Positions 2,861 to 51,018 of a stretch of DNA of 56,428 nt are shown here, in pieces. This DNA comes from a virus, in IMG/VR virus record IMGVR_UViG_3300046051_000019, positions 1 through 56,428 of that record, one strand, 5' to 3'. Position 1 is the stretch's first letter, and every line of letters starts with the position of its first letter. The position numbers and the translations under genes were made by a program. Below the pieces are notes generated by a model. The model worked only from the letters and a program-made list of their open reading frames with translations, was not told the origin of the DNA and made no database searches.

Positions 2861-3507
2861 TAGTAATCGATACGCGTGAACCGGAGTCGATCACTGAACA
2901 GCTCAGGGAAGAAGCGAGCGACGTCGAAGTCACTGAGGAGCACCTCGATACGGGTGACTTCTTAGCCGGTAGCTATATCGTTGAGCGTAAGCAGTACGGG
3001 GATTTCATTGGTCGCATGACGAACTCGGAGCGCGACGTCTGGCAACAAGTACTCGCGATGGAATCAGCTGCTGACGAGCTCGGGTACACCCCGGTGTTGC
3101 TCCTCGAGGGCGAATGGGCTGAAGCGATGCGATGGTCGAGCTTGACACCGAAAGAACCGACGATGGCGATCGGTAGTATCATGAAACTCGGTATCAGCGT
3201 CGTGCACACGTATGGTCCACGAGCGTCGTGTCAATTACTGGTCAAGCTCGGTGATGACTCGTCGCACGACGTCGGTAGTATCCGGGACTCGCCATCAGTA
3301 CCGCCAGAGATGTACCCGAGGTATATGACTGAGGGGTTTGTTGGCGTCGGCACGGCGCGTGCCGAGGATATCCTGGACAGGTATAGCAGTTTCGCTAGCG
3401 TGGTTCGACAGTTACTCGAGGACCCTGAGGATCTCAAGGAGATACACGGTATCGGTGACGCCACCGTCGAGAAAATGGTCGATATGGTGACGCGGGAATG
3501 GGAGTGA
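2857..3507 (+). CDS. ERCC4 (XPF/Mus81/Hef-type) structure-specific nuclease with C-terminal HhH
   Basis: VIDTRE...GDF...ERK signature and IHGIGDATVEKM hairpin. ATGA overlap with the polB stop codon. Confidence 0.8.
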   Translation: MIVIDTREPESITEQLREEASDVEVTEEHLDTGDFLAGSYIVERKQYGDFIGRMTNSERDVWQQVLAMESAADELGYTPVLLLEGEWAEAMRWSSLTPKEPTMAIGSIMKLGISVVHTYGPRASCQLLVKLGDDSSHDVGSIRDSPSVPPEMYPRYMTEGFVGVGTARAEDILDRYSSFASVVRQLLEDPEDLKEIHGIGDATVEKMVDMVTREWE

Positions 3508-3508
3508 G

Positions 3509-3766
3509 CTACGCCGCGTCGACCTTTACGTCGGTCACGGTGCCGGTGAACGGGTGTCGCGAGCCAACTGAGAGGAGCTCTCGGTCATCAGTGACTTTCA
3601 TGTGCTGTCCGTCGCTCCGCTGGAACGTGATAACGGTGTCTGGCTCCGTTTGGACTCGCTCCACCGTGCCGCTCCGCGTCTGGTGCTCGTCGCTTCGAAC
3701 GGAGTCGTACGTGACGACGACGCGATCGGTTTCGTCGAGTCGAGCGCTGATGTGGATGAGTGCCAT
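3509..3766 (-). CDS. Hypothetical protein
   Basis: 85-aa ORF that starts 1 nt after the stop of the upstream minus-strand gene, suggesting an operon. Confidence 0.55.
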   Translation of the reverse strand: MALIHISARLDETDRVVVTYDSVRSDEHQTRSGTVERVQTEPDTVITFQRSDGQHMKVTDDRELLSVGSRHPFTGTVTDVKVDAA

Positions 3767-3767
3767 G

Positions 3768-3944
3768 TCAGTTCTCTCCGCAAGCGGCCATGTAGCGCAG
3801 CGTCGCAGTGATGAGCCCGTCGTAGCGCTCCGCGGCTGATTTCTGTTTTGCTGCGTCGAGACCGTCTTCGTGGATCACGGTGACCATGAATCGGATGTGG
3901 TACGTCTCGAATTCTTCGCCGTCAGCGAATGTGTGTGCGTTCAT
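3768..3944 (-). CDS. Hypothetical small acidic protein
   Basis: ATG at 3944 lies directly behind the conserved leader with a GGAGG box. The longer ORF to 4175 only translates the leader and promoter. Confidence 0.6.
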   Translation of the reverse strand: MNAHTFADGEEFETYHIRFMVTVIHEDGLDAAKQKSAAERYDGLITATLRYMAACGEN

Positions 3945-4005
3945 CGTTGGGACCTCCTTTCCATTTAGACTAATGGCCGGTATCACAATAAGTCTTTCTC
4001 TTACA
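3945..4005 (-). promoter_or_regulatory. Conserved promoter+leader cassette, copy 1
   Basis: Minus strand reads TGTAAGAGAAAGACTTATTGTGATACCGGCCATTAGTCTAAATGGAAAGGAGGTCCCAACG then ATG. Confidence 0.75.
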
Positions 4006-4020
4006 GATACACTTATTACC
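4006..4020 (+). promoter_or_regulatory. Divergent TATA-like box (ACACTTATTACC)
   Basis: Centre lies about 27 nt upstream of the GTG at 4042. Confidence 0.4.
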
Positions 4021-4041
4021 GTCCGGTCCAAACAAATCCAT

Positions 4042-4533
4042 GTGCAACTATTCGCGTTCCACAAAAACACCGCGCTGTGCGCGCAATGGCTCTGCGACAA
4101 ACACGTCGTCAAGATCCCGACCGAAGCAGTGCAAATCCTCAACACCGCGCTACACGTCAACGGGTGTGACGACACGTTCTACAAACCAACGCACACGCGA
4201 CACCCCATCGTGCAATGGACAGCTGACTCGTTGATGAACTGGCGCTGGGCTCGCTTGTACGCGTACGCCGTCGGTGGCGAGTACACGAATCGCTACGACA
4301 AATCGCACACGTCGACCCAAAAACTACGCGACTGGCGATACGGCACAGCGGCGCCGTACGAGTACTTCGACGACGTCCAGTTCACTCCGCCACCGCGTGC
4401 GTTTGATTACGAGTCCGATGCCGATTCAGTGTGGCTTGCGTATCGCGACTACTACCGCGACTACAAAATCGATGCGATGGACGTGCGTTACGATCGCGGT
4501 CGACAGGCTCCCGAGTGGCTGTTTGAGGACTAA
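4042..4533 (+). CDS. Conserved viral protein with an LCDKHVVK...YKPTH..HP motif. Possibly related to the pyrimidine-dimer DNA glycosylase fold; uncertain.
   Basis: N-terminus reads QLFAFHKNTALCAQWLCDKHVVKIPTEAVQIL...YKPTHTRHPIVQW. The GTG start is inferred from promoter spacing. Confidence 0.5.
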   Translation: MQLFAFHKNTALCAQWLCDKHVVKIPTEAVQILNTALHVNGCDDTFYKPTHTRHPIVQWTADSLMNWRWARLYAYAVGGEYTNRYDKSHTSTQKLRDWRYGTAAPYEYFDDVQFTPPPRAFDYESDADSVWLAYRDYYRDYKIDAMDVRYDRGRQAPEWLFED

Positions 4534-7786: not shown

Positions 7787-7936
7787 ATGGCGTATCAATG
7801 CTCGGCACCGAACTGTGACAACGACGTCATCTTGGACGAGACACCGCATTGGACACTAACAGAAACGATTACACTCGAACGGTTTTGCAGTCACGGTTGC
7901 GCGAAAACGTATCTCGAACAAGTGATCCAGACATGA
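7787..7936 (+). CDS. Small zinc-binding protein (TRASH/FCS-like Cys pattern)
   Basis: MAYQCSAPNCDN...CSHGCAKTY. The start could also be 7781. Confidence 0.5.
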   Translation: MAYQCSAPNCDNDVILDETPHWTLTETITLERFCSHGCAKTYLEQVIQT

Positions 7937-8532
7937 CGCTCATCGTGCTCGAAGGCGCGAGCCGTAGCGGCAAATCAACGATCAGAGACCGGCTCGTCGA
8001 GCGACGTCCAAAATGGGTCACGTGGAAAGGCACTAATTTGATGCGTGAAGGGATCGGTGAGAGCTGGATCGATTACCGTGAGCGTTACCACGAAGCACTA
8101 CATCGGCTCTACGAGCTCAACCCGGAAAACGTTATCCTCGCGGATCGAGGGTTCACTGATTGCGTGTACAACTCCGACGAGCAAATCCGCGAGGAGTTCC
8201 GTCGCTTAGCGGCGTGTTACGGTGACGCGTACGTCTTGTACTTCTTCCCGGGTGATCTCCGATGGTCGAACCAGCGCTTCGACGAAACCGATTCCTCGGA
8301 GCGTCACGCTCACTTGGTGCACGAGTCTGAGGGTCGCGACGTCCTCTTCGAGCGCGGTACTCGAGATCAACCGAAGCTCAACCGCGTTCTTAATGAGTAC
8401 GAAGAGCTATTGTCGATGTTCCCGTATCAGCACATCGACACTGATGAACTCGACGTCGAGACGGCGACGAACGTCGCGGAGCAAGCGATACTGGACTGGT
8501 ACGGGACGGGTGAACACGACCCGGACGTGTGA
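7933..8532 (+). CDS. P-loop (deoxy)nucleoside-monophosphate kinase, thymidylate-kinase-like
   Basis: MTLIVLEGASRSGKST Walker A and an ADRGF motif. ATGA coupling. Confidence 0.65.
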   Translation: MTLIVLEGASRSGKSTIRDRLVERRPKWVTWKGTNLMREGIGESWIDYRERYHEALHRLYELNPENVILADRGFTDCVYNSDEQIREEFRRLAACYGDAYVLYFFPGDLRWSNQRFDETDSSERHAHLVHESEGRDVLFERGTRDQPKLNRVLNEYEELLSMFPYQHIDTDELDVETATNVAEQAILDWYGTGEHDPDV

Positions 8533-9190: not shown

Positions 9191-9598
9191 ATGCCAGACG
9201 CAGACGAACTAGACGAACAGTACACCGCGGACGAGCTCCGGCGCGGCCCAGCGATCGGCGTCACAGGTCGCTGGGACATGACGAAGCAAGAACTCATCGA
9301 CGCCATCACCGAGGAGACCGGTGTCGAGCGAGTCACCGACGAAGCGTTTCAAGGCGTGCACGATGTCGAGCCTGGCGACACCGTCGAGATGAACCATCTC
9401 CAAGCCGTGCTCACCGTCACCGACGTCGAGCGAAGCGAACACCGCGTCGCGATCGAGATGGAAACGACTCACGGCGGTCGCCACAGACTCGTGTACGACG
9501 AGTTCGAGATCCCGCACCTCGAGCGCTGGCGTGCGAACGACGACAAGTGGATGAAAAACAGTACTGACCCGGAGTACTTCCGAGTCGTTCAGGACTGA
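9191..9598 (+). CDS. Hypothetical protein (possible Rho_N/SAP-like motif MTKQELIDAITEETG)
   Basis: ATG lies 8 nt after the GGAGGTCCC box. Confidence 0.6.
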   Translation: MPDADELDEQYTADELRRGPAIGVTGRWDMTKQELIDAITEETGVERVTDEAFQGVHDVEPGDTVEMNHLQAVLTVTDVERSEHRVAIEMETTHGGRHRLVYDEFEIPHLERWRANDDKWMKNSTDPEYFRVVQD

Positions 9599-10248
9599 AA
9601 CGCAATTTCTTTCGCGTCACCGAGCTGCTCTCGATAAATATGAGCGGACGTCATGACGTGCTCGTGGCGACCGATCTCAGCATCGATCTCCTCTGCGAGC
9701 TCGTGGTGGTAATGACCGAATACCCCGACGTCCATCGGGTACGCGAACATCAAGTCCTGTGACCTGTTATACGTGAAGCAATGTAAGTACGTCCCGTTCC
9801 CGTTCTCGTCCGCGCGGATCATCCACTGCACGCGGCTCGTGCACGGCGAGTCCGGGGCACCGCCGAATTGGCTCGTCGCTTTCCGGGTACCGTGGTCACG
9901 GGTTAAGAGCTCGATCCATTTCTCCCAATCCGCGCTAATTCGTTTCCTGATGACGTCTTCGTAGAACGTCCCGTCGTCGAGATCCAGTCTCGTGTCGAGC
10001 TCACTCGATGCTGTGAACTCGGGTTCCTCGCCGCTCCGCACGGTTTCTATTTCGCTCCATAAGTAGTCGTGTCGTGGGTCGTCTTCGCTCCAGACGACGT
10101 ATTCATCCGGGGTGTGCGCGGTGACGCAGTAGTTCTGTAGTTCGAGCGTCTCGAAGCCCCGGGTCTCGACGCGTTGTCCGTGTTGGATAACTGATCGAAG
10201 CACTGATGGGTAGGAGTCGGCGACGTTCGCGACGTATAGTTCGTGCAC
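9589..10248 (-). CDS. Thymidylate-synthase (ThyA) family pyrimidine C5 transferase, paralogue 1. Asp at the base-specificity position suggests a dCMP substrate.
   Basis: SPCTSRVQWMI carries the catalytic Cys. YNRSQDLMFAYPMDV aligns with YQRSxDxxLGxPFNI, with N replaced by D. The GTG start lies 27 nt after AAACTTAAT. Confidence 0.7.
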   Translation of the reverse strand: MHELYVANVADSYPSVLRSVIQHGQRVETRGFETLELQNYCVTAHTPDEYVVWSEDDPRHDYLWSEIETVRSGEEPEFTASSELDTRLDLDDGTFYEDVIRKRISADWEKWIELLTRDHGTRKATSQFGGAPDSPCTSRVQWMIRADENGNGTYLHCFTYNRSQDLMFAYPMDVGVFGHYHHELAEEIDAEIGRHEHVMTSAHIYREQLGDAKEIAFQS

Positions 10249-10327
10249 GGTTCGTGGTAAGGAACGAGTAACATTAAGTTTTTCTCTTACAGTTACATTT
10301 ATCAATACTCGGTGTTTAACACCGTAC
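10249..10327. promoter_or_regulatory. Divergent promoter region with two outward TATA boxes
   Basis: Minus strand reads TGTAAGAGAAAAACTTAAT and plus strand ACATTTATCAAT. Each lies about 27 nt from its start codon (10248 and 10328). Confidence 0.5.
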
Positions 10328-10945
10328 ATGAGGTCCGTATGGCAGAACTTTCAAGACGGCGTGTCTCACTGCTCGGAGTGCCCCGGGCAAGAAGCACCGT
10401 ACCCACTTGGCGGTATCGGTAACCATGGCGCCGACGTGATGCTCGTCGGGCAAGAACCAGCGTACAACGTCGACGACGACACGGTTACCACGGAGATGAA
10501 CTGGCTCGACGCAGTAGCTACGATGATACAGAACCGTCGTGACTCCATGAACCCGCTCTGGAAACACATGATGAACGTCGCTGTCGCGGCGGAGTGCTCG
10601 CCAACCGATCTCTACTTCACGAATATCAGCAAATGTTCAACAGACAATACATCGTTTAGCGACTGCCTCGAACATTGCAGAGGGTACTTCCCACGCGAAG
10701 TCGCACAGGTCGATCCAGACGTCATGCTACTATACGGTGGGAAAGTCATCAGTACGGTGTTCGACATGTTCGACATCGAGTGGAGCGGGTCAGTTGGTGA
10801 CGTGCACGGCGAGATCCATGAAACGTCGAGCCTGAAACTCGCCGCGTTCTACCACTGGGGCTACATTTATAGACAGGGGGATCTAACGTCTTACCGCGAA
10901 GAGGTGACCAACGTTGTCCAAGACACTGTATCAGCGGAGAACTGA
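10328..10945 (+). CDS. Uracil-DNA glycosylase superfamily protein (family 4/5-like)
   Basis: N-terminal CSEC, motif MLVGQEPAYN in place of GEAPG/GLAPA, then YFTNISKC and HWGY. Confidence 0.6.
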   Translation: MRSVWQNFQDGVSHCSECPGQEAPYPLGGIGNHGADVMLVGQEPAYNVDDDTVTTEMNWLDAVATMIQNRRDSMNPLWKHMMNVAVAAECSPTDLYFTNISKCSTDNTSFSDCLEHCRGYFPREVAQVDPDVMLLYGGKVISTVFDMFDIEWSGSVGDVHGEIHETSSLKLAAFYHWGYIYRQGDLTSYREEVTNVVQDTVSAEN

Positions 10946-10948
10946 TCA

Positions 10949-12193
10949 ATGAGCATCCTCGAAACCGATCTCGCGGACGTTACCCCTGGGGGTCACGCGG
11001 CTCAAGCACTGCTCCACAAGTACGGTCTCGGCGCGCTCTTCGCCGCTAATGTATTAGGTGCCGGGTCAATATACATCTTATCGCAGACCGGCGCCTCAGT
11101 CGGGTTCACGTTGCTCTGGGTGCTACCGCTCGCGTTCGCTGTGGACATGGTGATGCACGACATGTCGTCGCGACTCGCGGTTAGGGATCGACCCCTAATG
11201 GAGTACATCAGTGACGCGCTCCACGAGCTCACTGGGAGTACACGGATCGGCGTCGCGTATGCCATACTGATGGCGCTCGTCATGCAACTCTGGGCCGTGG
11301 CGAACTACGCCGTAGCCGGCGCCGCGTTCTCGTGGTTCACAGGTGTCAACGTGTACGTCGCGATCCTCGCCGCGTCAAGCATCGGTGTCGTGCTCGTGAT
11401 GACGCGCACGTACAACTATATCGAAGCGGTTATCAGTGCGTTGCTCGTAACCGTGTTCGTTTCCTACGCCGCGTTGTCATTCGGGTTAGACGTCAACACG
11501 GCTGATCTCGTCAGTGGGTTCGTGCCCGGCGACGTGTCGAGCGCGACACTCGTCATCGCGATGCTCGGCACCACGATTTACTATCCGAACTTTTTTATCC
11601 AGAGCTCGATGCAACCGACAAAGGAATGGACGTCACTGAGAAAGTATCGTCGCGACAACGCGGTAGGTATCGCGTTCGCGATACTGATCTCAGTCGGGAT
11701 GCTCGTCGTCGCAGCTGTCGCGCTCGAGCCCGGTGAGCTATCCCTCACAGATCCAGCGATACCGCTCGTCGACTCCGTTGGCGCGTGGACGCTTCCCGTG
11801 TTCATGGCAGCTGTGCTCGCCGCGTCGTTCACATCAGCCACTGGGACGCTATTCGGTTCGTCGTTCGCGGTGCCTCAATCGCTCGGGAAGAAAACGATCT
11901 TTGGCGACACTGTGTTCACCGTGGTCACCGTCGTGCTGATCGGTGTCAGCTCGGTGCTATCCATCTTGGCGCTCGAGTTCACGGAGATGACACCGGTCCG
12001 GATGGCTATCACGATGCCAGCGTTGAACGGCGCGATCTTTCTCCCAGTGACGATCTTAGCGATGTACAACGCGACGGCGTACGAGATGGACGCGTGGCAA
12101 AAAACCGTCTCGGCGATCGCTGTCGTCGTCATGTTCGCGGGATCGATCCTCACAGCCGAGTCGCTGTTCGACACAGTGGTGAGCTTCCTATGA
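10949..12193 (+). CDS. NRAMP-family-like integral membrane transporter with non-canonical substrate-site residues
   Basis: About 11 hydrophobic segments. GLGALFAANVLGAGSIYILSQTGASVGFTLLWVL aligns with NRAMP TM1, with GAGS in place of DPGN. TM6 has YYPN in place of MPHN. Confidence 0.65.
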   Translation: MSILETDLADVTPGGHAAQALLHKYGLGALFAANVLGAGSIYILSQTGASVGFTLLWVLPLAFAVDMVMHDMSSRLAVRDRPLMEYISDALHELTGSTRIGVAYAILMALVMQLWAVANYAVAGAAFSWFTGVNVYVAILAASSIGVVLVMTRTYNYIEAVISALLVTVFVSYAALSFGLDVNTADLVSGFVPGDVSSATLVIAMLGTTIYYPNFFIQSSMQPTKEWTSLRKYRRDNAVGIAFAILISVGMLVVAAVALEPGELSLTDPAIPLVDSVGAWTLPVFMAAVLAASFTSATGTLFGSSFAVPQSLGKKTIFGDTVFTVVTVVLIGVSSVLSILALEFTEMTPVRMAITMPALNGAIFLPVTILAMYNATAYEMDAWQKTVSAIAVVVMFAGSILTAESLFDTVVSFL

Positions 12194-12513: not shown

Positions 12514-12650
12514 CTCGGTGTCCAATCGGTGGTTGTGACAATGCGGTGGAGCCCGGGCCGAATTGTTACGTCGAAGTCGAGCTCAGTAGTGAATCCGTGA
12601 AGAAACTGGTCTGTGAAGACTGCGCGGAGACGTTCAAGGACCATGTTACT
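12510..12650 (+). CDS. Small zinc-ribbon protein (46 aa)
   Basis: MTRCPIGGCDN...CEDCAETF. ATGA coupling. Below the ORF-track length cutoff. Confidence 0.5.
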
Positions 12651-13116
12651 AAGTGACGTATCGATCCGGGAGCGAATCAGTGAAGATATCGTCGTTACGC
12701 CTGAACCGGTAGAGGAACAGTTCCAACCGGCGTCGTTCGACGTCAGGCTCGGAGAGCAACTCTACCACGCGGCGACGGACACGACGAGTGTCGACGGGAA
12801 TAGCCACGTACTCGAGCCACGGGAAGCGTACATCGGGCACACGATGGATTACGTCGAGTTACCGCTCGACGTAGCTGCGCAGTTGACTGGCCGGAGTAGT
12901 ATCGGTCGTCAAGGCGTCATTATCCATAAAACCGCTGGGTGGATAGATCCCGGTTTCCGCGGCGAGATCACGCTCGAGCTCTATAATTTCAGTGAAGACC
13001 CCGTTGTTCTCGACGTCGGTAGCCGCGTCGGTCAACTAGTGTTCTTCCAACTCGACCAAGAGAGCACGGGGTACGATGGACAATTTCAAGATCAACTGGG
13101 CCCGACGGCACGGTGA
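12643..13116 (+). CDS. dcd: dCTP deaminase / dUTPase family protein
   Basis: GRSSIGRQG and AGWIDPGFRGEITLELYN signatures. Confidence 0.8.
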   Translation: MLLSDVSIRERISEDIVVTPEPVEEQFQPASFDVRLGEQLYHAATDTTSVDGNSHVLEPREAYIGHTMDYVELPLDVAAQLTGRSSIGRQGVIIHKTAGWIDPGFRGEITLELYNFSEDPVVLDVGSRVGQLVFFQLDQESTGYDGQFQDQLGPTAR

Positions 13117-13197: not shown

Positions 13198-13413
13198 ATG
13201 GACGACATCGCACCAGCGGAGAAAACCAAGGAGTACAGTCAAGCGAAGACGTACGTCGTCACCGAAGCCGAGACCGAAGCAGATGCTCGACGCAGTGCGG
13301 AGACGCAATATCGCGACGAGATCGAGCACCAATTCCTCATCAAGGACTTACAGGCCTTCGTTCGAACGCACCCAAAGGGCTACGAGGTCGCGGTCGTCGC
13401 GAGACTACAGTGA
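13198..13413 (+). CDS. Hypothetical protein
   Basis: 71-aa ORF located after the promoter box. Confidence 0.55.
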   Translation: MDDIAPAEKTKEYSQAKTYVVTEAETEADARRSAETQYRDEIEHQFLIKDLQAFVRTHPKGYEVAVVARLQ

Positions 13414-15218
13414 TGTTCGAATACGATATCGTCGAGAACGAGTACGGGCCACAACTCGCCGTGTCGTTCCAATACGACGAACGAACAATCGAACAGATCA
13501 AGTCACTGAGCTGGGAGACGACGCATCGAGCATGGTCAGAGGACCACGACGCGTGGCTCATCGATTACACCGAGCAGTCGCTCGAAGAATTCCAAGACCA
13601 AATGAACGTCGTTATCCCGCCGCGATACACGCCCAGCGAGGACCACAGCGGCGTGGTTCATGCAGTGGTTCCAGACGAATACGCGTGGTTCTTCCTTCAA
13701 GACCCGTCGAGCGAGATCGATGATTTACTCTGGCAAGAGCTCGCGTACTGGAACGACGCGTACAAGGAACACCAACAACAATGGATTCGACTCTACGATA
13801 CAGATACCCATGGCGCACCGATCGGTCTCCTCGACAAGACACGGAAGCTCGTCGAGGCGAGTGGCTACGAGTTCACAGTTACGTGGAACGGTGACCGAAA
13901 GGGCGGCGCGGTCCAGCTCGACTGGGAGTTCCCCTCGGAGCTCCGCGGATACCAACGAGACGCGATCAACGCCGTGAAAGCGAATGACGGAGGTATCATC
14001 GCGTTACCAACCGGGACCGGGAAAACCGTCACGGCGATGAAACTCCTCGAGGAAGTGTCGCTCGAGATGGGGCGAGGTATCGTTCTCGTGCACACACAAG
14101 AACTGCTTTATCAATGGGAGAGTGAGATCCGCGATGCGCTACGCGTGGAGCCCGGCGTGATTGGCGATGGGAACTGGAGCGAGGGCCCAGTTACGATCGC
14201 GGTGATGCAGACGTTGATGAGCCGTGGCGTGGACGAGCTCGACGAGTCGTATGGCGTCGCGGTGTTTGACGAGTGTCACAGGACATCAGCGGCGGACACG
14301 ATGCACGACATCGGGATGGATTTAAACGTCGCGATGCGTGTCGGGCTCAGCGCGACGCCGTGGCGTCGGATCGAGGGCGAGGAACTCATGATCGAGGGCG
14401 CGGTTGGCGGCGAGGCGCACACCGTTACCGCCGAGGAAATGATCGACGCCGGGTATCTCTCAGAACCGCGATTCGACGTCATCGACCCTCGAGACTACGG
14501 GCGTGTCGACACCGCTAATACCGGTGAAGCGTATCACGACGCGTACCGTCGCTGTATCAGTCTCACCGCGACGAGGAACCGCGCGATCGCGGCGAAAACC
14601 GCGGAGCTCGCCAACCTAGGGTACCAAGTGTTGGTTAACGTGGATCGTATCAAGCACGGGCGTCTCCTCGAGTACGCATTGAACCGAGACGTCGATCACG
14701 ACGACGTCATTGACGCCGTTGACTTCGACGACGCGCAATCGAGGCGCGAGTTCATCAGCGCGTTGCAAGCGACGAGTCGAGTCGCTGATACGAACGCCGA
14801 GTTCATGCACGGCGCTGATACCACTAAGATCCGTCAGGATACACTCGACGAGTTCCAAAACGGTGACCTCGATATCCTCGTCTCGACGCTATTGAGGGAG
14901 GGCGTCGATATCCCGAACATTAGCGCTATCGTTCTCGCGCAAGCAGGGAAAAGCGACGTCAAGCAAATCCAGGTCATCGGGCGAGCGCTACGACCGAAGA
15001 ACGGCGACCACGCTCGCATCGTGGACGTGAACGATACTGGTCGATACTTTCGCAGTCAATTCGAGAAGCGCATAACCGCGATGCGGGAATACTATGGAGA
15101 GTATGGACCGTCTTTGAGTGACTTCGATGTCGAGCCGACATCGGATGATGGACCACCCGAGTCGCGGAGCTTAACTGACGAGCCACCGGAGTCGTTCGAG
15201 GACCTCTATGATAACTGA
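13413..15218 (+). CDS. Superfamily 2 DNA helicase (Rad25/XPB- or type III res-like)
   Basis: ALPTGTGKT, VFDECHR, GLSATPWR and QVIGRALR motifs. TGATG coupling. Confidence 0.85.
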   Translation: MFEYDIVENEYGPQLAVSFQYDERTIEQIKSLSWETTHRAWSEDHDAWLIDYTEQSLEEFQDQMNVVIPPRYTPSEDHSGVVHAVVPDEYAWFFLQDPSSEIDDLLWQELAYWNDAYKEHQQQWIRLYDTDTHGAPIGLLDKTRKLVEASGYEFTVTWNGDRKGGAVQLDWEFPSELRGYQRDAINAVKANDGGIIALPTGTGKTVTAMKLLEEVSLEMGRGIVLVHTQELLYQWESEIRDALRVEPGVIGDGNWSEGPVTIAVMQTLMSRGVDELDESYGVAVFDECHRTSAADTMHDIGMDLNVAMRVGLSATPWRRIEGEELMIEGAVGGEAHTVTAEEMIDAGYLSEPRFDVIDPRDYGRVDTANTGEAYHDAYRRCISLTATRNRAIAAKTAELANLGYQVLVNVDRIKHGRLLEYALNRDVDHDDVIDAVDFDDAQSRREFISALQATSRVADTNAEFMHGADTTKIRQDTLDEFQNGDLDILVSTLLREGVDIPNISAIVLAQAGKSDVKQIQVIGRALRPKNGDHARIVDVNDTGRYFRSQFEKRITAMREYYGEYGPSLSDFDVEPTSDDGPPESRSLTDEPPESFEDLYDN

Positions 15219-15260: not shown

Positions 15261-15334
15261 TGCGAGGTAGGACAGCTAGGCTACTCCGCACGGCTCATGC
15301 CCGTGAAACCGATGGTTCGAGTCCATCCCTCGCA
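15261..15334 (+). tRNA. tRNA with CAT anticodon (Met, or Ile if C34 is modified)
   Basis: Hand-folded cloverleaf. Acceptor stem TGCGAGG/CCTCGCA. U8 is present and the D loop has GG. Anticodon stem CACGG/CCGTG with loop CTCATGC. T arm GATGG-TTCGAGT-CCATC. Confidence 0.85.
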
Positions 15335-15339
15335 ACTGC

Positions 15340-15447: not shown

Positions 15448-15548
15448 AGCGAAAACAGCTCGCCGTCTCGGAAGGGACACATCCAGTGACCGCGTACCGT
15501 CGTGCGGACCTGGAGGACTCGCGGGCACACGACGGGCTCCGGCGCACT

Positions 15549-15613
15549 CGGCAAGGGAACCGGTTACTTCGCATCTAGCGCGAGTGACTCGCGTTCGAAT
15601 CGCGACTTGTCGT
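15549..15613 (+). ncRNA. D-arm-less tRNA-like module B with a 7-nt loop AUCUAGC
   Basis: Acceptor stem CGGCAAG/CTTGTCG. Long stem pairs 15563-72 with 15580-88. T arm TCGCG-TTCGAAT-CGCGA. Confidence 0.4.
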
Positions 15614-15942: not shown

Positions 15943-17478
15943 ATGGACTTGAACTCGTCTAAAACAGAAGCGCGGAACCTCGCTGGTGGCCATCGCCACG
16001 AGATCAATGACCCACTGGAAGCGCTTCGAATGGTCATGATTACCAACTTACTCGAGGACACGTACTACGAGGACGACTCCGAGTCGCTCGAGAAACTCGT
16101 CGAGCGCTTTCAAGCAGCTGCGAACGTGGATCCCGAGTTCCCGTTGCGACTCGCCGCGTGGGCGCGACGAGACGCATACGTTCGAGACGTCCCGCAAGTA
16201 TTACTCGTGCTCAGCGCGCGCCACGACGACGCGAAGCACTACGTTCGACGATACGCGAGCCACGTGATCGATCGAGCCGACGAGCTCTGCACGACGCTCG
16301 CGTTTAACAACACAGTGGCTGGTGACGGCCCGGGTGACTTCTCCGCGACGATTCCATGGGTCTTGAAACGAGCCATTGCTGATGTGATCGAGGACGCGTC
16401 GTTCGACGCGTACCAGTACGCGAAGTACCGACAAGGGCACCGAGCGGTCTCGATGCACGACGTGTTCAACCAAGTGCACCCATATGGGTACGAGGACAGT
16501 CCAGAACCCGTCGAGGGACAATCCGAGATCGCGAATAGGATAACCAAGGGAGGGAAGGACGCGTATCCAGACGTACAGTCTCTCAGCCAGAGACGTACGT
16601 GGGAAGACACCATCAGTGAAGCGGGGCAAGACGGCGACGTCACGGCTGATGACTGGCGCCGCGTGCTCGACGACATGGGGTTATTCGCCCGAGTCCGGAA
16701 CTTACGGAACATGCTCGAAGCTGGGCTGACTGGTGAAGAAATCCTCGAGGACGCGAGCGACGAGTGGATCCGGAACAGTCAACTATACCCGTTCAGGTTT
16801 TACCAAGCACGGAAAGCACTCAAGGGCGCTAGTGAGATGGATCGCTACGTGCACGAGTGGCTTGAGAACGCGGTGAACGTCGCGTGTGAAACCGTGCCAG
16901 ACGAGCTCGTACACACAGCGACGCTCGTGGACCTGTCGGGCTCGATGCAACAACGGGTGTCGAACCGGAGCGACCTTAGTCGCGTCGAGATCGCGGCGTT
17001 GTTCGGCGCGATGCTCGGTCAGAGACGCTCGGATGTCATCGGGTTCGCCGATACAGCGACTCGTGTCCCCGTTGACCCGCTCGAGAACAGTGTGCTCTCG
17101 TTGCAAGAAGCGATCGTGTCCACGGATGTCGGGAGTAGCACGTTCGCTCACAAGGCGCTCGAGTTCATCGCGGACGAGTCTACTGATGGAGAAGTCGTTC
17201 CTGATAGAGTCGTGGTGTTCACTGATTTCCAGATCTGGGAGAGACAGCGGTACGGTAACGACCCGAACGCGTTCCGTGGTGCGTGGGAGATGCTTCGCGA
17301 GATGCACTCCGAGGAACCGTATTTGTACATCGTGGACTTGGCGAGTTACGGCGAGATCAAGCTCCCAGAGAACTACCCGGGCGTCACGAGACTGCAGGGA
17401 TGGAACGACGGCGTGTTGGATTACATCTGGCACGCCGAGAACAGTTTACTAGACGACATTCAAGCGTATGACCCATGA
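15943..17478 (+). CDS. Ro60/Rsr-like TROVE-domain protein with C-terminal vWA domain
   Basis: N-terminus has NLAGGHRHEINDPLEALRMV..TYYED..DPEFPLRLAAWARRDAYVRD, which is TROVE-like. The vWA MIDAS is DLSGSM. Confidence 0.7.
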   Translation: MDLNSSKTEARNLAGGHRHEINDPLEALRMVMITNLLEDTYYEDDSESLEKLVERFQAAANVDPEFPLRLAAWARRDAYVRDVPQVLLVLSARHDDAKHYVRRYASHVIDRADELCTTLAFNNTVAGDGPGDFSATIPWVLKRAIADVIEDASFDAYQYAKYRQGHRAVSMHDVFNQVHPYGYEDSPEPVEGQSEIANRITKGGKDAYPDVQSLSQRRTWEDTISEAGQDGDVTADDWRRVLDDMGLFARVRNLRNMLEAGLTGEEILEDASDEWIRNSQLYPFRFYQARKALKGASEMDRYVHEWLENAVNVACETVPDELVHTATLVDLSGSMQQRVSNRSDLSRVEIAALFGAMLGQRRSDVIGFADTATRVPVDPLENSVLSLQEAIVSTDVGSSTFAHKALEFIADESTDGEVVPDRVVVFTDFQIWERQRYGNDPNAFRGAWEMLREMHSEEPYLYIVDLASYGEIKLPENYPGVTRLQGWNDGVLDYIWHAENSLLDDIQAYDP

Positions 17479-20731: not shown

Positions 20732-21204
20732 GTTAGTTCCTTGAATAGCCGAGCGGCGCGGCGCCAGTCGTGTTCTTGCGCGTCACCCTTGGTCCGGGCT
20801 AGCTGGAGTGTTTCCTCACTGAATAACTCGATGAATTGGTGTTTCGCGATCTCGCGGGCGTGGTGTTCGGGCACGAGCTCGTCGGTGACGTTTTGCATTA
20901 TCGCTGTGACGAGTGATTCGTGGAACGACGCCATCCCGTCGATGATGGCTTGTTCGCCGGTCTCGGTTAATCGGTACCATCGCAGCGAGCCGGGTTTGTC
21001 GTAGGTATCGGTGTACACGAGCTCGAGCGAGCCTTCGTCGCGGGCTTGCCTGAGTGCCTTTGAGACCTGCTGTCGAGATAAGTTTATCTCGATGTCTCGA
21101 TGCGTGAATTCGTTCTCCATGTTGCTTATTTGTTGTACTATTTTGAGCCGTGAATCGTGGCGTCCGCGGCCGTGTGCTGACGCGAGCGGGTTGAATGCTT
21201 GCAC
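20728..21204 (-). CDS. Winged-helix transcription regulator (candidate)
   Basis: ISNMENEFTHRDIEINLSRQQVSKALRQARDEGSLELV...RWYRLTETG. The start is GTG 21204 (leaderless) or ATG 21120. Confidence 0.55.
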   Translation of the reverse strand: MQAFNPLASAHGRGRHDSRLKIVQQISNMENEFTHRDIEINLSRQQVSKALRQARDEGSLELVYTDTYDKPGSLRWYRLTETGEQAIIDGMASFHESLVTAIMQNVTDELVPEHHAREIAKHQFIELFSEETLQLARTKGDAQEHDWRRAARLFKELT

Positions 21205-21224: not shown

Positions 21225-21432
21225 CCGTGATAAACTTACCTCTTTCGCTTGTTTCCAACGAGGGTAGTCGCGTAGAGCCTTTGTTTACACTATTCCGAAA
21301 CTGTCTCGCTGCCTTGTTACCGAGCAAGACAGCTTGAATAAAAATCGACGTGTTAACAGATGAAAACAAGTCTTACTGTCTTACAGCGACGACAGGAAAA
21401 CGGTGTTGCTTACTATAATAAGAACAACACCC
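21225..21432. repeat. Left arm of an imperfect inverted repeat (partner 24348..24575)
   Basis: A 34-nt identical core at 21399-21432 is the reverse complement of 24348-24381. A 16-nt block at 21317-21332 is the reverse complement of 24451-24466. Weaker similarity lies between the blocks. Confidence 0.75.
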
Positions 21433-21697: not shown

Positions 21698-21756
21698 TGT
21701 GTAAGAGTAAGACTTATTGTGATACCGGCTATTAGTCTAAATGGAAAAGAGGTCCC
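21698..21756 (+). promoter_or_regulatory. Conserved promoter+leader cassette, copy 4
   Basis: TGTGTAAGAGTAAGACTTATTGTGATACCGGCTATTAGTCTAAATGGAAAAGAGGTCCC then ATG at 21757. Confidence 0.75.
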
Positions 21757-22719
21757 ATGTATTACGACTACTCCCACGGCATGGAAATCGAGCAAGATCC
21801 CAACCAAGCGCCGCGAGACGTCGTGCAAGGCGACGACTGGCACAGGGACGGTAGCGGTCCCCAAGAAACCGATTACGGCGCGTACAACCAAGTCAAATCC
21901 ATTCTCAACGCGTTCAAGGACGACTGCGACGGCTCGACGTGGACGTGGCACAACGAGACCACTGATGGCGCGGGATGCGGGAGCCATGTTCATCTCAACG
22001 TCGGCTCGGATTTCGACGACGAGCTCCAAGCCTGGACCATCACGCACAACACCGTCATCGAGCTCGCGCCATTCATGCTCCCGTTGTTCTGCGCGGACTG
22101 GACCAACGGCTACAGGGACTCAGTCGCTCGATGGGCGAGCCCCACGACGACGCGGTACTCGCAGGACACACTGCAATCGATGGTCTCCAACCCTCGGAGT
22201 CAATCACGGAGCTACGACGCAGTCACGATGAACGGCGCGGATTACTCCGGGAAACCGCTCACGCTCGAGCTCCGGATGAACGAGGCGCACCCGGCTCGAG
22301 CCATCGTGGGGTTGTTGTTCCTCCGAAGGGTCGCGGGGCGCTGCGTGGAGAAGGGATGGTCACCCAAACTCGCTGGGGATCGCTCCAGGGTCATCGCGGA
22401 GATCTACGACGCGGCGTACGACGCGAGCGACCCGATCGAGGCGCTCCGCGACGCGGGGTCCATTGAATTCGAGGACGGGCGCGGGATCCCCGGGGTCGGC
22501 GAGGCGTTCGATACCGCGCTCGAGGTGCTTCGAGCGATCCTCGGGTCGATGGGCACGGATCACGGGAATTACAAGGATCGCGTCAACGCGTTCACGGTGG
22601 CTCGGATCGACGGGAGACACGAGTCGGGCCCGGAGGACCTTGGTCGCGAAGCGTGGAGGGTCGACGAGGGCTCTCGATTTTGGAGCATGGTGGACGACCG
22701 GCGCTGGGACGAGGTGTAG
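21757..22719 (+). CDS. Amidoligase (Pfam Amidoligase_2 / glutamine-synthetase-like COOH-NH2 ligase fold)
   Basis: GMEIE, DGSG, GCGSHVHLN and LELRMNEAH motifs, typical of this family. Confidence 0.65.
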   Translation: MYYDYSHGMEIEQDPNQAPRDVVQGDDWHRDGSGPQETDYGAYNQVKSILNAFKDDCDGSTWTWHNETTDGAGCGSHVHLNVGSDFDDELQAWTITHNTVIELAPFMLPLFCADWTNGYRDSVARWASPTTTRYSQDTLQSMVSNPRSQSRSYDAVTMNGADYSGKPLTLELRMNEAHPARAIVGLLFLRRVAGRCVEKGWSPKLAGDRSRVIAEIYDAAYDASDPIEALRDAGSIEFEDGRGIPGVGEAFDTALEVLRAILGSMGTDHGNYKDRVNAFTVARIDGRHESGPEDLGREAWRVDEGSRFWSMVDDRRWDEV

Positions 22720-22940
22720 TGCTCCTCGAGGTATTCGCAGCGGTCTCGACACGGTTTTCGAGCTGTGAACAGCTGAGATATCGGTGTTTGAGACCGGGTT
22801 TCGCGCTCGAAGCTGCTGTAGCGGTGTTTGGAGCGTGTTTAGCATGGGGGTAACGCTGCTCGAAGCGGCGCGCAGTACGCCCGGGTGGTTCGCGAGACGA
22901 TGAGTCACTGCTGTTCGCCCTGCTCACACACTCGCGTCAG

Positions 22941-22962
22941 TGTGTAAGAGTAAGACTTATGG
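22941..22962 (+). promoter_or_regulatory. TGTGTAAGAGTAAGACTTATGG promoter box
   Basis: Same core as the cassette family but with no downstream ORF. The predicted TSS is near 22984. Confidence 0.5.
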
Positions 22963-22983
22963 CGTTACTGGTCTTACGTGTAC

Positions 22984-23100
22984 ATGGAAGGCAGCTGGTT
23001 CGATCCCAGCCGCTCACCTGGCTGAAGCGCGAAGGACAGGTGACGTGCCCGAACAGGGGCGCCGTGGCGATTAACTGTCACGCACCACACCCTTCCTCAC
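22984..23100 (+). ncRNA. Promoter-driven structured small RNA with a T-arm-like hairpin
   Basis: Ends pair as GGAAGG (22986-91) with CCTTCC (23091-96). The T arm GCTGG-TTCGATC-CCAGC lies at 22994-23010. A 7-bp hairpin pairs 23014-20 with 23037-43. Confidence 0.5.
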
Positions 23101-23113
23101 ACGCTCCCTTTCA

Positions 23114-23177
23114 GTGAAAAAGAGAAAGACTTATTGTGATACCGGCTATTAGTCTAAATGGAAAAGAGGTCCCACAG
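23114..23177 (+). promoter_or_regulatory. Conserved promoter+leader cassette, copy 5
   Basis: GTGAAAAAGAGAAAGACTTATTGTGATACCGGCTATTAGTCTAAATGGAAAAGAGGTCCCACAG then ATG at 23178. Confidence 0.75.
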
Positions 23178-23360
23178 ATGGCACGCTACAAACTCACCGG
23201 GTACACCGTCAACACCGACGAGCTCCCAGACTGGAAAATCGACGAGCTCACCAAGAGCACCACGATCGTCACCGCGGAGAACAAGGAACACGCTCGACGC
23301 GTGCTCCGCGACGAATACGTCGACGAGTTCCACGACGTCGAGATCGAGGAAGTGAACTAA
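23178..23360 (+). CDS. Hypothetical small protein
   Basis: MARYKLTGYTVNTDELPDWK..., 60 aa. Confidence 0.6.
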   Translation: MARYKLTGYTVNTDELPDWKIDELTKSTTIVTAENKEHARRVLRDEYVDEFHDVEIEEVN

Positions 23361-23361
23361 C

Positions 23362-23943
23362 GTGTGCTGGATGACTGCGCGGCGCGGTGACTCCCCGCTC
23401 GCCTCGGGGCTCGACGCGTGCCAACGACACGAGGACGCGAGCGGCGGGCACTCCTGGGGCTACGCGATCAGTGATGGCGAGAAACTCGAGACGTTCACAC
23501 AAGTCGGGACCATCGACACGTTCGCGACGAGCCCCGAGGCCGAGGTCGCGCTCGTACACACGCGACTCGCGACTCGCGGCGAGATCACGGAGGAGAACGC
23601 GCACCCGTTCTTGATTCACTGGCACGAACCCGGGGGTGCGTCGCGCACAGCGGCGCTCGCGCACAACGGCACGTGGCACGACGCTCCACACGATGGCCGT
23701 GCGGACTCGTGGCACATGGCCCGTGAACTCGAAGCACGCCTCGAGGACGACGCCGAGCTCCGCGACGCAGTCGAGTCGCTTGGCGCGCTCACGAGTGAAA
23801 CGTTTATCGTCGTCACTGATATGGCCCGGGCGCTCGTGTACTCGGGGCGCTTCACGGTCACCACTGATGACGTCGAGTCCCCGCGAGTCGTGCAGTCGAG
23901 CGAGCTCGACGAGATCCCGACTGGCTCGACCCTCGAGCTCTAA
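23362..23943 (+). CDS. Class II (Ntn-type) glutamine amidotransferase
   Basis: The GTG start is followed by Cys2, the Ntn nucleophile. HTRLATRGEITEENAHPF motif. Confidence 0.7.
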   Translation: MCWMTARRGDSPLASGLDACQRHEDASGGHSWGYAISDGEKLETFTQVGTIDTFATSPEAEVALVHTRLATRGEITEENAHPFLIHWHEPGGASRTAALAHNGTWHDAPHDGRADSWHMARELEARLEDDAELRDAVESLGALTSETFIVVTDMARALVYSGRFTVTTDDVESPRVVQSSELDEIPTGSTLEL

Positions 23944-23963: not shown

Positions 23964-24011
23964 GTAAGAGAAAGACTTATTGTGATACCGGCCATTAGTC
24001 TAAATGGAACA
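23964..24011 (+). promoter_or_regulatory. Conserved promoter+leader cassette, copy 6 (lacks the GGAGGTCCC part)
   Basis: GTAAGAGAAAGACTTATTGTGATACCGGCCATTAGTCTAAATGGAACA then ATG at 24012. Confidence 0.7.
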
Positions 24012-24101
24012 ATGGAACTCAGTGACGAAGAACTCGCGCGCCAAGAAGCACAGACCCGAGCCAGCAAGGCCCGCCGCGAACTCCCCGACGACTGGATCTA
24101 A
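24012..24101 (+). CDS. Possible 29-aa peptide MELSDEELARQEAQTRASKARRELPDDWI
   Basis: Follows cassette copy 6. Acidic composition typical of haloarchaea. Confidence 0.35.
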   Translation: MELSDEELARQEAQTRASKARRELPDDWI

Positions 24102-24347: not shown

Positions 24348-24575
24348 GGGTGTTGTTCTTATTATAGTAAGCAACACCGTTTGACACCGTTTCCCGATGG
24401 TGCTGTGGGGTCGCTACGCGGCGTGGATCTGTCTATTGAGTTGACACGTTCTGTCTTGCTCGGTAAGTCGGCAGTCTTACGGACTCGGTTTTTTGTAAAG
24501 TAAGGCGCGTGGCATACTTTCAACTCGGAATATAGCGTATTGGCCTCTCTTTCACGGTAAGAAAGACTTACAATC
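24348..24575. repeat. Right arm of the imperfect inverted repeat (partner 21225..21432)
   Basis: See the left arm. The outer end contains the GTAAGAAAGACTTAC promoter for the gene at 24596. Confidence 0.75.
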
Positions 24576-24595: not shown

Positions 24596-24808
24596 ATGGA
24601 GGCACTCGACGAGCTACGACGATACGTGAGCAGGAACGAGTACAGCACGGAGGTCACGATCGACCAGGACAACCTCGACGACGTACAGTGCATCGCCGAC
24701 GAGCACGAGTGGATCTACGTCGAGGAGCGACACCTCGATGAATTCGACGTCCCGGCATCAGTCACCATCAGGGTGACGATTGATCTCGACGAATGGAGAA
24801 ATGAGTGA
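24596..24808 (+). CDS. Hypothetical acidic protein
   Basis: 70-aa ORF starting about 30 nt after the AAGACTTAC box. Confidence 0.55.
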   Translation: MEALDELRRYVSRNEYSTEVTIDQDNLDDVQCIADEHEWIYVEERHLDEFDVPASVTIRVTIDLDEWRNE

Positions 24809-49713: not shown

Positions 49714-50095
49714 CTTAGTAACAGCACTCTTAACGCTCATCTCGGTGGGCGTCATGGTCGTCGGAGCGGCACTCGGGTATGTCATCGGGCAACTCGACCA
49801 GTTAAAGAAAGATGACATTGAACCGATGAAGAGTAAGATCGACACGGTGTGGAACACAGTGTTCGGCGTGGAGAGCCAAGAAGGTTTTTTGAACGAAGCG
49901 GAGGACAGTCACGAGAAGATCCGGGAGACGATCGAGGAGACTCGGAGGGAACAGAACGAGGCTCACGATGAACTCGTCGATGGGTTCATCGAGGTCGAGC
50001 GATATCTACGCGAGTTGAATCGAGCGCTGCGTCGTCAAGACATCGAGGTCCCTGACGAGGAAATCGATAACGACGAGTTGCTCAAAGACGATTAG
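49706..50095 (+). CDS. Membrane-anchored coiled-coil protein
   Basis: N-terminal TM segment LVTALLTLISVGVMVVGAALGYVIG followed by an acidic helical region. Confidence 0.5.
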   Translation: MASLVTALLTLISVGVMVVGAALGYVIGQLDQLKKDDIEPMKSKIDTVWNTVFGVESQEGFLNEAEDSHEKIRETIEETRREQNEAHDELVDGFIEVERYLRELNRALRRQDIEVPDEEIDNDELLKDD

Positions 50096-51018
50096 ACCTG
50101 GTCTTTGAACGCGGTGAACGCGATGTCGTTCGCTATATCTATAGCTGTTTCTTCGTTGTCGTGGAATCGGCGTTGTTCGTACGCGGTCATGTAGCGAAGC
50201 CAATCCGCGTAGAACGCTTCGTACGCGTGGAGCGCGTCGATCTCGCTCCACGGGACGAGCCCGTCGCGAGCCCGTGCTAACCCGTGTGTGAGGTAGAACA
50301 TCACGGCGTCGAGCTCGTCGCGTGGGAGCCTGATATCTGGGAGCGAAACCGGGTCCATGTCCCTCGCGGCGTCGAGCACCATTGGTTCTCGCTCGACGTA
50401 GTAGTGACAATTATTCATGTAGTGCGTGTACGAACCGAGCTCGACGCCGAGGATCCCGGCGAGTACTTCTTGGAGCCACTGGAAGTTATGCACGTCGTAC
50501 GGGTATCCCCAGTACATGTCTTGTGACCGCATCGACGTGAACGCGTGGAGGGAGTCGTCTCGGATCACGAGTTGCATTGTGAGCGTGCACGCGACGTCTG
50601 GTCCGTCGTAGTTCTCGACGTGAGGTTGGTGGAACGCGATAACGGCTCGACGAGTCGTCTGGTTGTCGACGAGTTGTTGGACGACGCGATCGATTTGGTC
50701 GTGCGGGACGCGCCTGAGGTAGCGGCCGTACGCTGAGCCCTTGAGTTCCCCGTCTGTCATGAATTGGGTCATCGTGGAGTTGTATCGCTCGACGTGCCCA
50801 GGGTTTTGCCCCGCCCAGTACGCGATTGCTTCTTGGAGTTGGAACGCGAGGTTGTAGTTCTCCCTGAAGAATAATCGTTCACGCGGGTCTTGTGATTGTA
50901 TCGCGACGCCGAGGCGTTCACGCGTGTCACCGTTCCGCGAGTGCTGAGCGTCTTTTTCGCTCAGCGTCTTGACGATCACTGGGAACGCGTTGGACGTGGT
51001 GCACTCGAACACGTGCAT
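50092..51018 (-). CDS. Thymidylate-synthase (ThyA) family pyrimidine C5 transferase, paralogue 2. Asp at the base-specificity position.
   Basis: RRAVIAFHQP, DVACTLTMQLVI (catalytic Cys), MRSQDMYWGYPYDV (N replaced by D) and NNCHYY. The ATG is leaderless, 27 nt after CGTTTTTAAC. Confidence 0.75.
   Translation of the reverse strand: MHVFECTTSNAFPVIVKTLSEKDAQHSRNGDTRERLGVAIQSQDPRERLFFRENYNLAFQLQEAIAYWAGQNPGHVERYNSTMTQFMTDGELKGSAYGRYLRRVPHDQIDRVVQQLVDNQTTRRAVIAFHQPHVENYDGPDVACTLTMQLVIRDDSLHAFTSMRSQDMYWGYPYDVHNFQWLQEVLAGILGVELGSYTHYMNNCHYYVEREPMVLDAARDMDPVSLPDIRLPRDELDAVMFYLTHGLARARDGLVPWSEIDALHAYEAFYADWLRYMTAYEQRRFHDNEETAIDIANDIAFTAFKDQV

Follow-up and report, generated by a model that had tools for sequence, protein, structure and literature searches.

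A conserved amidoligase and class-II glutaminase gene pair as a possible two-component amidating enzyme of haloarchaeal tailed viruses

Two genes of the viral sequence IMGVR_UViG_3300046051_000019 (IMG/VR; positions 1 to 56,428, the whole of which is referred to here as the window) encode a predicted amidoligase (open reading frame (ORF) A) and a predicted class-II, N-terminal nucleophile (Ntn) glutamine amidotransferase (GATase; ORF B). The window belongs to a haloarchaeal tailed virus whose large terminase is 45% identical to that of Halorubrum virus CGphi46 and 40% identical to that of ChaoS9. Its close relatives are metagenomic contigs of 55-57 kb with a 98% identical amidoligase, and one 98%-related virus, L010, shows 95-96% identity to the window across A and B. 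A megablast search of the pair region and of 23 kb of the window against a phage collection gave no match. A sequence-only reading of this DNA had picked out both genes as an amidoligase/GATase pair and both ORFs are present where it placed them (Table 1), with B opening GTG-TGC.

In order to place ORF A we looked at its family, its profile matches and its predicted fold. A search of 5.8 billion proteins yielded a family of 48 sequences, none with a Pfam domain in the catalytic part. The signatures GMEIE, GCGSHVHLN and LELRMNEAH that had first drawn attention to A are indeed there and fall on invariant family columns: in a 45-sequence alignment the invariant residues are E10, E12 and Q13 (GMEIEQ), G75, S76, H77 and H79 (GSHVH), K166, T169, E171 and R173 (KPLTLELR), together with R120 and R133. 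A full profile search of 1.84 billion representatives returned 127 relatives of A, 60 of them at E <= 1e-30, and across 49 distant relatives the ExE, HxH and ExR metal/ATP motifs (E10, E12, H77, H79, E171, R173) are at least 90% conserved. Only one of these 49 has any Pfam match (GCS2, 5e-8), and the long relatives of A mostly carry no Pfam domain, with one GNAT fusion. A itself has no Pfam match at E <= 1, nothing meaningful in NCBIfam and a single hit in PHROGs, to the unannotated family phrog_23742 (2.7e-75); neither A nor B matches PADLOC, and a PDB sequence search with the A family profile produced no meaningful match. An AlphaFold2 (AF2) model of A built from the family alignment (pLDDT 92, pTM 0.92) was compared with the PDB using Foldseek. 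The 50 listed of 175 matches are all carboxylate-amine ligases of the glutamine synthetase (GS) fold at TM 0.4-0.5, and among the matches listed are YbdK/GCS2 (the best, E 1e-4, TM 0.49), PafA, Dop, GCL, GS and GmaS. Against predicted viral structures the top match is PhiCh1, and most of the named entries below it are phage proteins called 'Amidoligase enzyme', many entries being unnamed. On the strength of the model A is a GS/GCS2-fold amidoligase, predicted to form amide bonds at the expense of ATP.

The family name originally given to A, Amidoligase_2 / glutamine-synthetase-like ligase, survives as far as fold and superfamily are concerned and fails for the Pfam family Amidoligase_2 (PF12224). 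One match to PF12224, at E = 0.18, was found among 45 homologues of A, and an hhalign comparison of the A family with 26 Amidoligase_2 proteins of the LUZ24 gp18 type stayed sub-threshold (probability 30%, E 5.6e-4, 163 columns), with every signature in identical order, including a PF(F/L)...(D/N)DW motif. A belongs to a distinct family, probably a divergent sister of Amidoligase_2 and no member of it by that model's criterion.

ORF B is more readily classified. Its Pfam scores are marginal for GATase_4 (24.4 bits, cut-off 23) and below the cut-off of 27 for GATase_6 (24 bits), and the motifs HTRLATRG and NAHPF noted at the outset are present, as is HNGTW. The family comprises 37 homologues with the typical start MCWMT (MCW in 33/38) and is invariant at H66, T67, R68, N79, H81, P82, H101, N102, G103 and D115. 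A PDB profile search retrieved PurF (6e-7) and the glutaminase domain of GlmS (9e-6) with HTR and HNG aligned, and B aligns with the N-terminal domain of LUZ24 gp19 at an hhalign probability of 90%, D115 included. The AF2 model (pLDDT 93.6) has the four-layer alpha-beta-beta-alpha Ntn fold, and Foldseek paired it with the GlmS glutaminase domain (TM 0.78, E 3e-9), PurF and EgtC (TM 0.68, E 1e-6). In GlmS and PurF the Cys is the nucleophile, an Arg and an Asp hold the alpha-groups of glutamine and an Asn-Gly pair forms the oxyanion hole, the GlmS counterparts being R73, N98, G99 and D123. As this full catalytic set is conserved, B is by sequence and model a complete stand-alone glutaminase domain without an acceptor domain, with predicted glutaminase activity. 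Fold and profile support for both assignments is strong, including that of B to the class-II (Ntn) amidotransferases.

We surveyed the pair in contigs fetched by protein identity and by scans of IMG/VR and GTDB, scoring a GATase neighbour if the family hidden Markov model (HMM) or Pfam could detect it. The linkage suspected from the window is real and strongly conserved: B adjoins A in 13 of the 14 informative independent haloarchaeal virus/plasmid lineages, down to 32% identity of A, with the gene order reversed at one locus. In at least five of the lineages (ChaoS9, PhiCh1, L008, L009 and L041) no more than 1-5 nt separate the stop codon of A from the start codon of B, and pairwise identities of A and of B correlate (r = 0.88). 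A conserved third gene was rejected. An ORF39-like gene 3' of B occurs in the PhiCh1 subclade only and an HExxH ORF in L003 and L006 only, so the conserved core consists of two genes. This HExxH ORF (LHEFRHHMQ; 140-144 aa) lies between A and B in those two distant lineages (L003 8359-8793, L006 8125-8547). Pfam does not recognise it, and it is a candidate small metallopeptidase. Scanning 185,579 GTDB species genomes gave a single locus, positions 1-2366 of L020 (DATKVL010000170.1), in a metagenome-assembled genome labelled Dehalococcoidia; here GATase, a 156-aa ORF and amidoligase follow one another in reversed order, and the contig may be viral and mis-binned or may reflect transfer outside haloarchaea.

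Direct homologues of the pair are found in the Vertoviridae, in the Natrialba virus PhiCh1 (ORF41/42 and ORF40) and the Halobacterium virus ChaoS9 (ChaoS9_220 and ChaoS9_215), at 46-47% identity for A and 42% for B and in the same order and orientation as in the window. In both viruses A and B are 4 nt apart and are followed by the ORF39-like gene and a helix-turn-helix (HTH) gene, whereas in the window they lie ~640 nt apart with a copy of a putative promoter and a 60-aa ORF between them and the ORF39-like gene is absent. The records for the PhiCh1 and ChaoS9 amidoligases say only 'uncharacterized protein', and our analysis corrects the annotation of PhiCh1_200 and ChaoS9_220 to GS-fold amidoligases paired with an already annotated GATase. 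The class-II GATase of both viruses appears among the viral metabolic genes catalogued in PMC8651126, and an amidoligase with a GATase is on record for a Poseidoniales virus (PMC11706807). In view of these reports the pair is not new for archaeal viruses, where the sequence-only reading had taken either of its proposed roles to be a novelty.

With regard to function, we tentatively favour A and B acting as a two-component glutamine- and ATP-dependent amidating enzyme of haloarchaeal tailed viruses. This reading draws on the complete glutaminase site of B, which lacks an acceptor domain, and on the tight and often translationally coupled adjacency of the genes. Since B has only the glutaminase domain, it would need a synthase partner if it is an amidotransferase. 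After removal of the initiator Met, Cys1 of B would attack the amide of a glutamine anchored at its alpha-carboxylate and alpha-amino groups by R68 and D115, N102-G103 would provide the oxyanion hole, and ammonia would be released. A would use ATP and metal ions (through E10, E12, H77, H79, E171 and R173) to phosphorylate the carboxylate of an acceptor X, and the acyl-phosphate would then react with ammonia passed on from a physically coupled B, or with a different amine, and become an amide. The net reaction would be X-COOH + ATP + Gln -> X-CONH2 + ADP + Pi + Glu. Candidates for X are a nucleic-acid-bound or nucleoprotein substrate, as hinted at by helix-hairpin-helix (HhH) fusions in the A family, or an acidic envelope polymer or glycan, as hinted at by neighbouring genes in some relatives.

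A number of observations weigh against such an enzyme. L005 carries A without B within 13 kb of sequence, the two genes of the window itself probably lie in separate transcription units across their ~640-nt gap, and PF12224 is matched neither by A, even at E <= 1, nor by any of its 49 distant relatives. Known GS-fold enzymes use free ammonia or amines, and to our knowledge no characterised GS-fold enzyme takes ammonia from a GATase partner. Where a GS-fold ligase is known to be paired with a GATase-like protein (EgtA/EgtC, PuuA/PuuD, GmaS/NMGS) the two belong to ligase-plus-hydrolase pathways.

It is these pairings that favour the main alternative, a gamma-glutamylation cycle, a close rival which we consider only somewhat less likely than the amidating enzyme. 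In such a cycle A would ligate the gamma-carboxylate of glutamate to an amine on a small molecule or macromolecule, and B, instead of donating ammonia, would be an Ntn hydrolase acting afterwards, either to cleave off the gamma-glutamyl group or to process the gamma-glutamyl amide, as in ergothioneine synthesis (EgtA/EgtC), PuuA/PuuD and GmaS/NMG synthase. No precedent other than EgtA/EgtC is known to us in which these two folds are combined, and both match: the best PDB matches of A are GCS2/YbdK and GCL ligases, one distant relative of A matches Pfam GCS2 as noted above, and B resembles EgtC. All characterised GS-fold ligases known to us activate a glutamyl gamma-carboxylate. The Arg and Asp with which B would hold free alpha-groups suit gamma-glutamyl-X as well as glutamine, and the LUZ24 cluster includes a gamma-glutamyl cyclotransferase and a RimK-like ATP-grasp protein. 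However, the conserved module has only two genes with no conserved tailoring enzyme between them and does not encode further steps that the cycle would call for, an 'on' and an 'off' step with nothing in between is a less parsimonious provision for one virus, and genes packed tightly and coupled in translation more typically encode heteromeric amidotransferases.

Two further proposals concern the target of the pair and overlap with either chemistry. In the first the pair would convert the host envelope by amidating acidic surface groups, such as uronic acids of S-layer glycans or polymers of the poly-gamma-glutamate type, with altered receptors and the exclusion of other, superinfecting viruses as the outcome; an effect of this kind has been proposed for the amidoligase and GATase clusters of bacterial phages. 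Its place in PhiCh1 and ChaoS9 is the accessory/lysogeny region, with integrase, ParA, repressor and HTH genes as neighbours, surface-related genes occur within a few kb in some relatives (an AglB oligosaccharyltransferase and a prepilin peptidase in L006, a UDP-glucose dehydrogenase in L005, a sugar epimerase in L003), and a role in cell-wall modification has been suggested for clusters of the phiEco32 type, as cited in PMC10580990. These surface-related neighbours are sporadic and unconserved though, no signal peptide or membrane segment is evident in the models of A or B, the HhH fusions are left unexplained and the window virus looks lytic, with a PolB and a Prim-Pol-domain protein and no integrase family among its scanned ORFs. 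We regard envelope conversion as improbable.

The second target proposal, that the pair amidates or aminoacylates a modified DNA or RNA base such as one from a 5-(hydroxy)methyl-pyrimidine pathway, appears to us quite improbable. The window encodes two ThyA-like proteins (9589-10329 (-) and 50092-51018 (-)), in both of which the residue corresponding to E. coli Asn177 is Asp, as it is in a T-even dCMP-hydroxymethylase-like protein, and dCTP-deaminase-like (DCD), Tmk-like kinase and uracil-DNA glycosylase (UDG)-superfamily genes, listed with 12613-13116 (+), 7849-8532 (+) and 10328-10945 (+). Such a gene content may mean that 5-hydroxymethyl- or 5-methyl-cytosine takes the place of cytosine in this virus. 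Eight of 45 A family members (P0009, P0015, P0017, P0021, P0022, P0027, P0031 and P0032) have a C-terminal HhH domain, in L043 the gene immediately upstream of the amidoligase gene (3260-4252) codes for an HhH protein, an MT-A70 methylase follows the GATase in L010, and in some bacterial phage contigs amidoligase and GATase domains lie beside thymidine-hypermodification genes with no role assigned (PMC8989533). Yet the complete ChaoS9 genome has the pair while homologues of the two ThyA-like genes and of the DCD, Tmk and UDG genes are all missing from it, and restriction enzymes cut ChaoS9 DNA into the patterns expected in silico (PMC6471424). In PhiCh1, too, the pair is found and ThyA-like gene 1 has no homologue. 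The nucleotide genes of the window lie 8-28 kb from the pair (13 kb for the Tmk-like ORF at 7849-8532, the only kinase-like ORF found), and among 43 scanned window ORFs there is no Pfam family for a 5-hydroxymethyluracil (5-hmU) DNA kinase or aGPT-Pplase.

The check for co-occurrence of the pair with ThyA-like genes across haloviruses that the sequence-only reading had suggested is thus negative, with ChaoS9 holding the pair and lacking those genes. ThyA-like gene 1 has no halovirus match among 50,697 phage records, and among the relatives only L006 has a ThyA-like gene near the pair. Because ChaoS9 has the pair without pyrimidine genes, ThyA-like gene 1 lacks a halovirus match and ChaoS9 DNA is cut as predicted, the link between the pair and pyrimidine genes is not obligatory, and the earlier idea that X is specifically a hydroxymethyl-pyrimidine is not supported. 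The type of HhH seen in the A family and in L043 is also present on haloarchaeal ribosomal protein L32e, N-terminally (E 2.6e-13), and so marks a general nucleic-acid binder which is not specific to DNA; as a context it keeps open a nucleic-acid-associated target. The most novel version, in which the pair uses glutamine and ATP to amidate or aminoacylate, after replication, a viral DNA base that bears a carboxyl or amine group, in the window virus perhaps atop a 5-(hydroxy)methylcytosine pathway, we hold to be very improbable, and if true it would be an undescribed hypermodification chemistry and the first in archaeal viruses.

Table 1 Features at and around the amidoligase and glutaminase genes, in window coordinates
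Feature	Position	Strand	Description
Inverted repeat, left arm	21398..21432	.	35-bp perfect; 56-nt 71%-matching block 21277-21332
Leader copy 1	21703..21756	+	Putative promoter/leader (AAGAGTAAGACTTATTGTGATACCGGCTATTAGTCTAAATGGAAAAGAGGTCCC), ends at amidoligase ATG; GAGGT Shine-Dalgarno (SD)-like site 5 nt before ATG
ORF A	21757..22719	+	320 aa; GS/GCS2-fold carboxylate-amine ligase, divergent amidoligase, as predicted from AF2, Foldseek and family alignment
Partial leader copy	22946..22990	+	Promoter-like half kept, half with 5' untranslated region (UTR) and SD site diverged; 65% identity to copy 1
Putative untranslated segment	22984..23108	+	13-codon ORF only and T-arm-like hairpin GCTGGTTCGATCCCAGC; read from sequence
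Leader copy 2	23120..23177	+	Before 60-aa ORF
60-aa acidic ORF (MARYKLTGY...)	23178..23360	+	ATG 23178; lineage-specific cassette
ORF B	23362..23943	+	193 aa, GTG start then Cys; predicted stand-alone class-II (Ntn) glutamine amidotransferase/glutaminase
Leader copy 3	23966..24011	+	Before 29-aa ORF
29-aa ORF	24012..24101	+	L010 has MT-A70 methyltransferase cassette at this position
Inverted repeat, right arm	24348..24382	.	Matching 56-nt block 24451-24506

The genes of this region are punctuated by a 55-nt leader element which occurs in six full copies in the window against none expected by chance. The full copies are placed at 3976 (-), 9139 (+), 18843 (-), 21710 (+), 23127 (+) and 23973 (+), the last three being leader copies 1 to 3 of Table 1, and weaker ones at 22946 (the partial copy of Table 1), 24559 and 25944. 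The element has an invariant core, G-AAGACTTA, and the rest of it supplies a GAGGT Shine-Dalgarno-like site before the ATG. The core is also found ~27 nt 5' of the ATG of a leaderless-looking gene at 24596, which is the spacing of an archaeal TATA-box, and we infer that the element combines a promoter with a short leader. The sequence-only reading had put each gene of the pair behind its own copy. This is true of A, where copy 1 runs up to the ATG, but not of B, as the second copy precedes the 60-aa ORF that had been seen between the pair; the GTG of B follows the stop of this ORF by one base, making B the second gene behind leader copy 2. The 60-aa ORF has no family in Pfam or PHROGs (searched as a 74-aa version with a GTG start) or in PADLOC (searched as the 60-aa form). 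In L010 unrelated sequence replaces the 60-aa ORF cassette and the MT-A70 methyltransferase cassette replaces the 29-aa ORF, and the breakpoints of these differences coincide with leader copies. L010 also has, 2 kb 3' of its GATase gene in a stretch that cannot be aligned with the window, a 65-aa ORF (14504-14701) with a GatB/YqeY domain match.

Upstream of leader copy 2, positions 22946-23108 hold the promoter-like half of a leader followed by ~125 nt that contain a hairpin and no ORF but one of 13 codons. A promoter-driven structured RNA of about 115 nt had been proposed here (22984-23100). Rfam gave no match at gathering score in this interval, its best match in E-value mode being a chance miRNA, ARAGORN called no tRNA in the segment, and the folding energy is ordinary in comparison with shuffled sequences (z = -1.06). 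A transcript may start near 22984; the structured RNA is not supported by these searches. The segment shows 0 substitutions in 125 nt against L010 next to a gene that is 1.8% divergent, but selection on it is not shown by this as longer runs identical between the window and L010 occur nearby. We also considered a tRNA-derived hairpin in the sense of an attP site and rejected it, the ARAGORN and Rfam searches being negative and no integrase being found among the scanned ORFs. The exact hairpin pattern occurs in IMG/VR in the same virus lineage only, and its single metagenome match is no tRNA.

The whole module is bracketed by an inverted repeat that is unique in the window and is kept in L010 in the same orientation. 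Its core is itself a hairpin (GGTGTTG...CAACACC), and the longest run of sequence shared without change with L010 includes its left arm. Both arms are equally spaced to outward-facing genes at 21204 (-) and 24596 (+), and because of this shared geometry they look like duplicated upstream regulatory sequence. For an invertible segment or mobile cassette we found no evidence, with the same orientation in the window and L010 and the repeat restricted to this lineage, and a 16-mer scan gave chance matches only.

Elsewhere in the window a gene for a virus-encoded divalent-metal transporter of the Nramp family is found at 10949-12193 (+) (Pfam 1.7e-30). A tRNA-Met and another element, tRNA-like and with a CTA anticodon (15261-15336 and 15540-15613), lie just 5' of a gene for a TROVE (Ro60-like) and VWA protein (15943-17478). 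The CTA element is called by ARAGORN only, with no match to the Rfam tRNA model even at E <= 1, and may either partner the Ro protein, as a Y-RNA-like or tRNA-like molecule, or work as a suppressor tRNA. The helicase of L010 (973-3978) has Hint/intein-splicing matches and is called in three pieces, that of the window (13410-15218) is one ORF of 602 aa, and on this basis an intein appears to be present in L010 but not in the window.

Amidoligase and GATase clusters are widespread in phages, and our literature search found no experimental function for any such pair. As homologues of the window pair occur in the cultivable PhiCh1 and ChaoS9, whose hosts can be grown, the haloarchaeal version offers a practical system for identifying the product of such enzymes. 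A nucleic-acid target would mean a new modification chemistry and an envelope target a new superinfection-exclusion mechanism in archaea.

How the pair compares with known systems can be seen first in bacterial phages. Clusters of an amidoligase (PF12224) with a class-II GATase were reportedly described there by Iyer et al. in 2009. The clusters of LUZ24 (gp18/gp19), phage tf and phiEco32 likewise place a class-II Ntn GATase gene after that of a GS-fold amidoligase in a viral genome, and for those of LUZ24, tf, phiEco32 and OM43 phages the predicted roles are synthesis of peptide-like metabolites or cell-wall modification (PMC3517423, PMC3890496, PMC10580990). LUZ24 gp18 has its catalytic motifs in the same order as A in the sub-threshold hhalign alignment, and LUZ24 gp19 shares with B a related GATase domain including the unusual HNGT...W...DS pattern. 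The bacterial clusters differ in that A is not captured by the PF12224 model and that some members of the A family carry HhH domains. Unlike the LUZ24 cluster, the window pair comes without a COOH-NH2 ligase paralogue, an ATP-grasp protein or a gamma-glutamyl cyclotransferase, and B is a bare 190-aa glutaminase domain where LUZ24 gp19 has 510 aa. The ergothioneine enzymes EgtA, of the glutamate-cysteine ligase family, and EgtC, a class-II Ntn amidohydrolase, have the same two folds and are encoded together, as A and B are, but there is no detectable sequence relation beyond the superfamily and A and B lack EgtB/EgtD partners and stand in a viral context. MurT/GatD and other heteromeric glutamine-dependent amidating enzymes follow the same proposed logic, with an ATP-activated carboxylate and ammonia from a glutaminase subunit encoded by an adjacent gene; in MurT/GatD a Mur-ligase fold is joined to a class-I (triad) GATase, whereas A and B combine a GS-like with a class-II Ntn fold. 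Among the systems compared here the haloarchaeal version is the most reduced form seen, two genes and a bare glutaminase domain.

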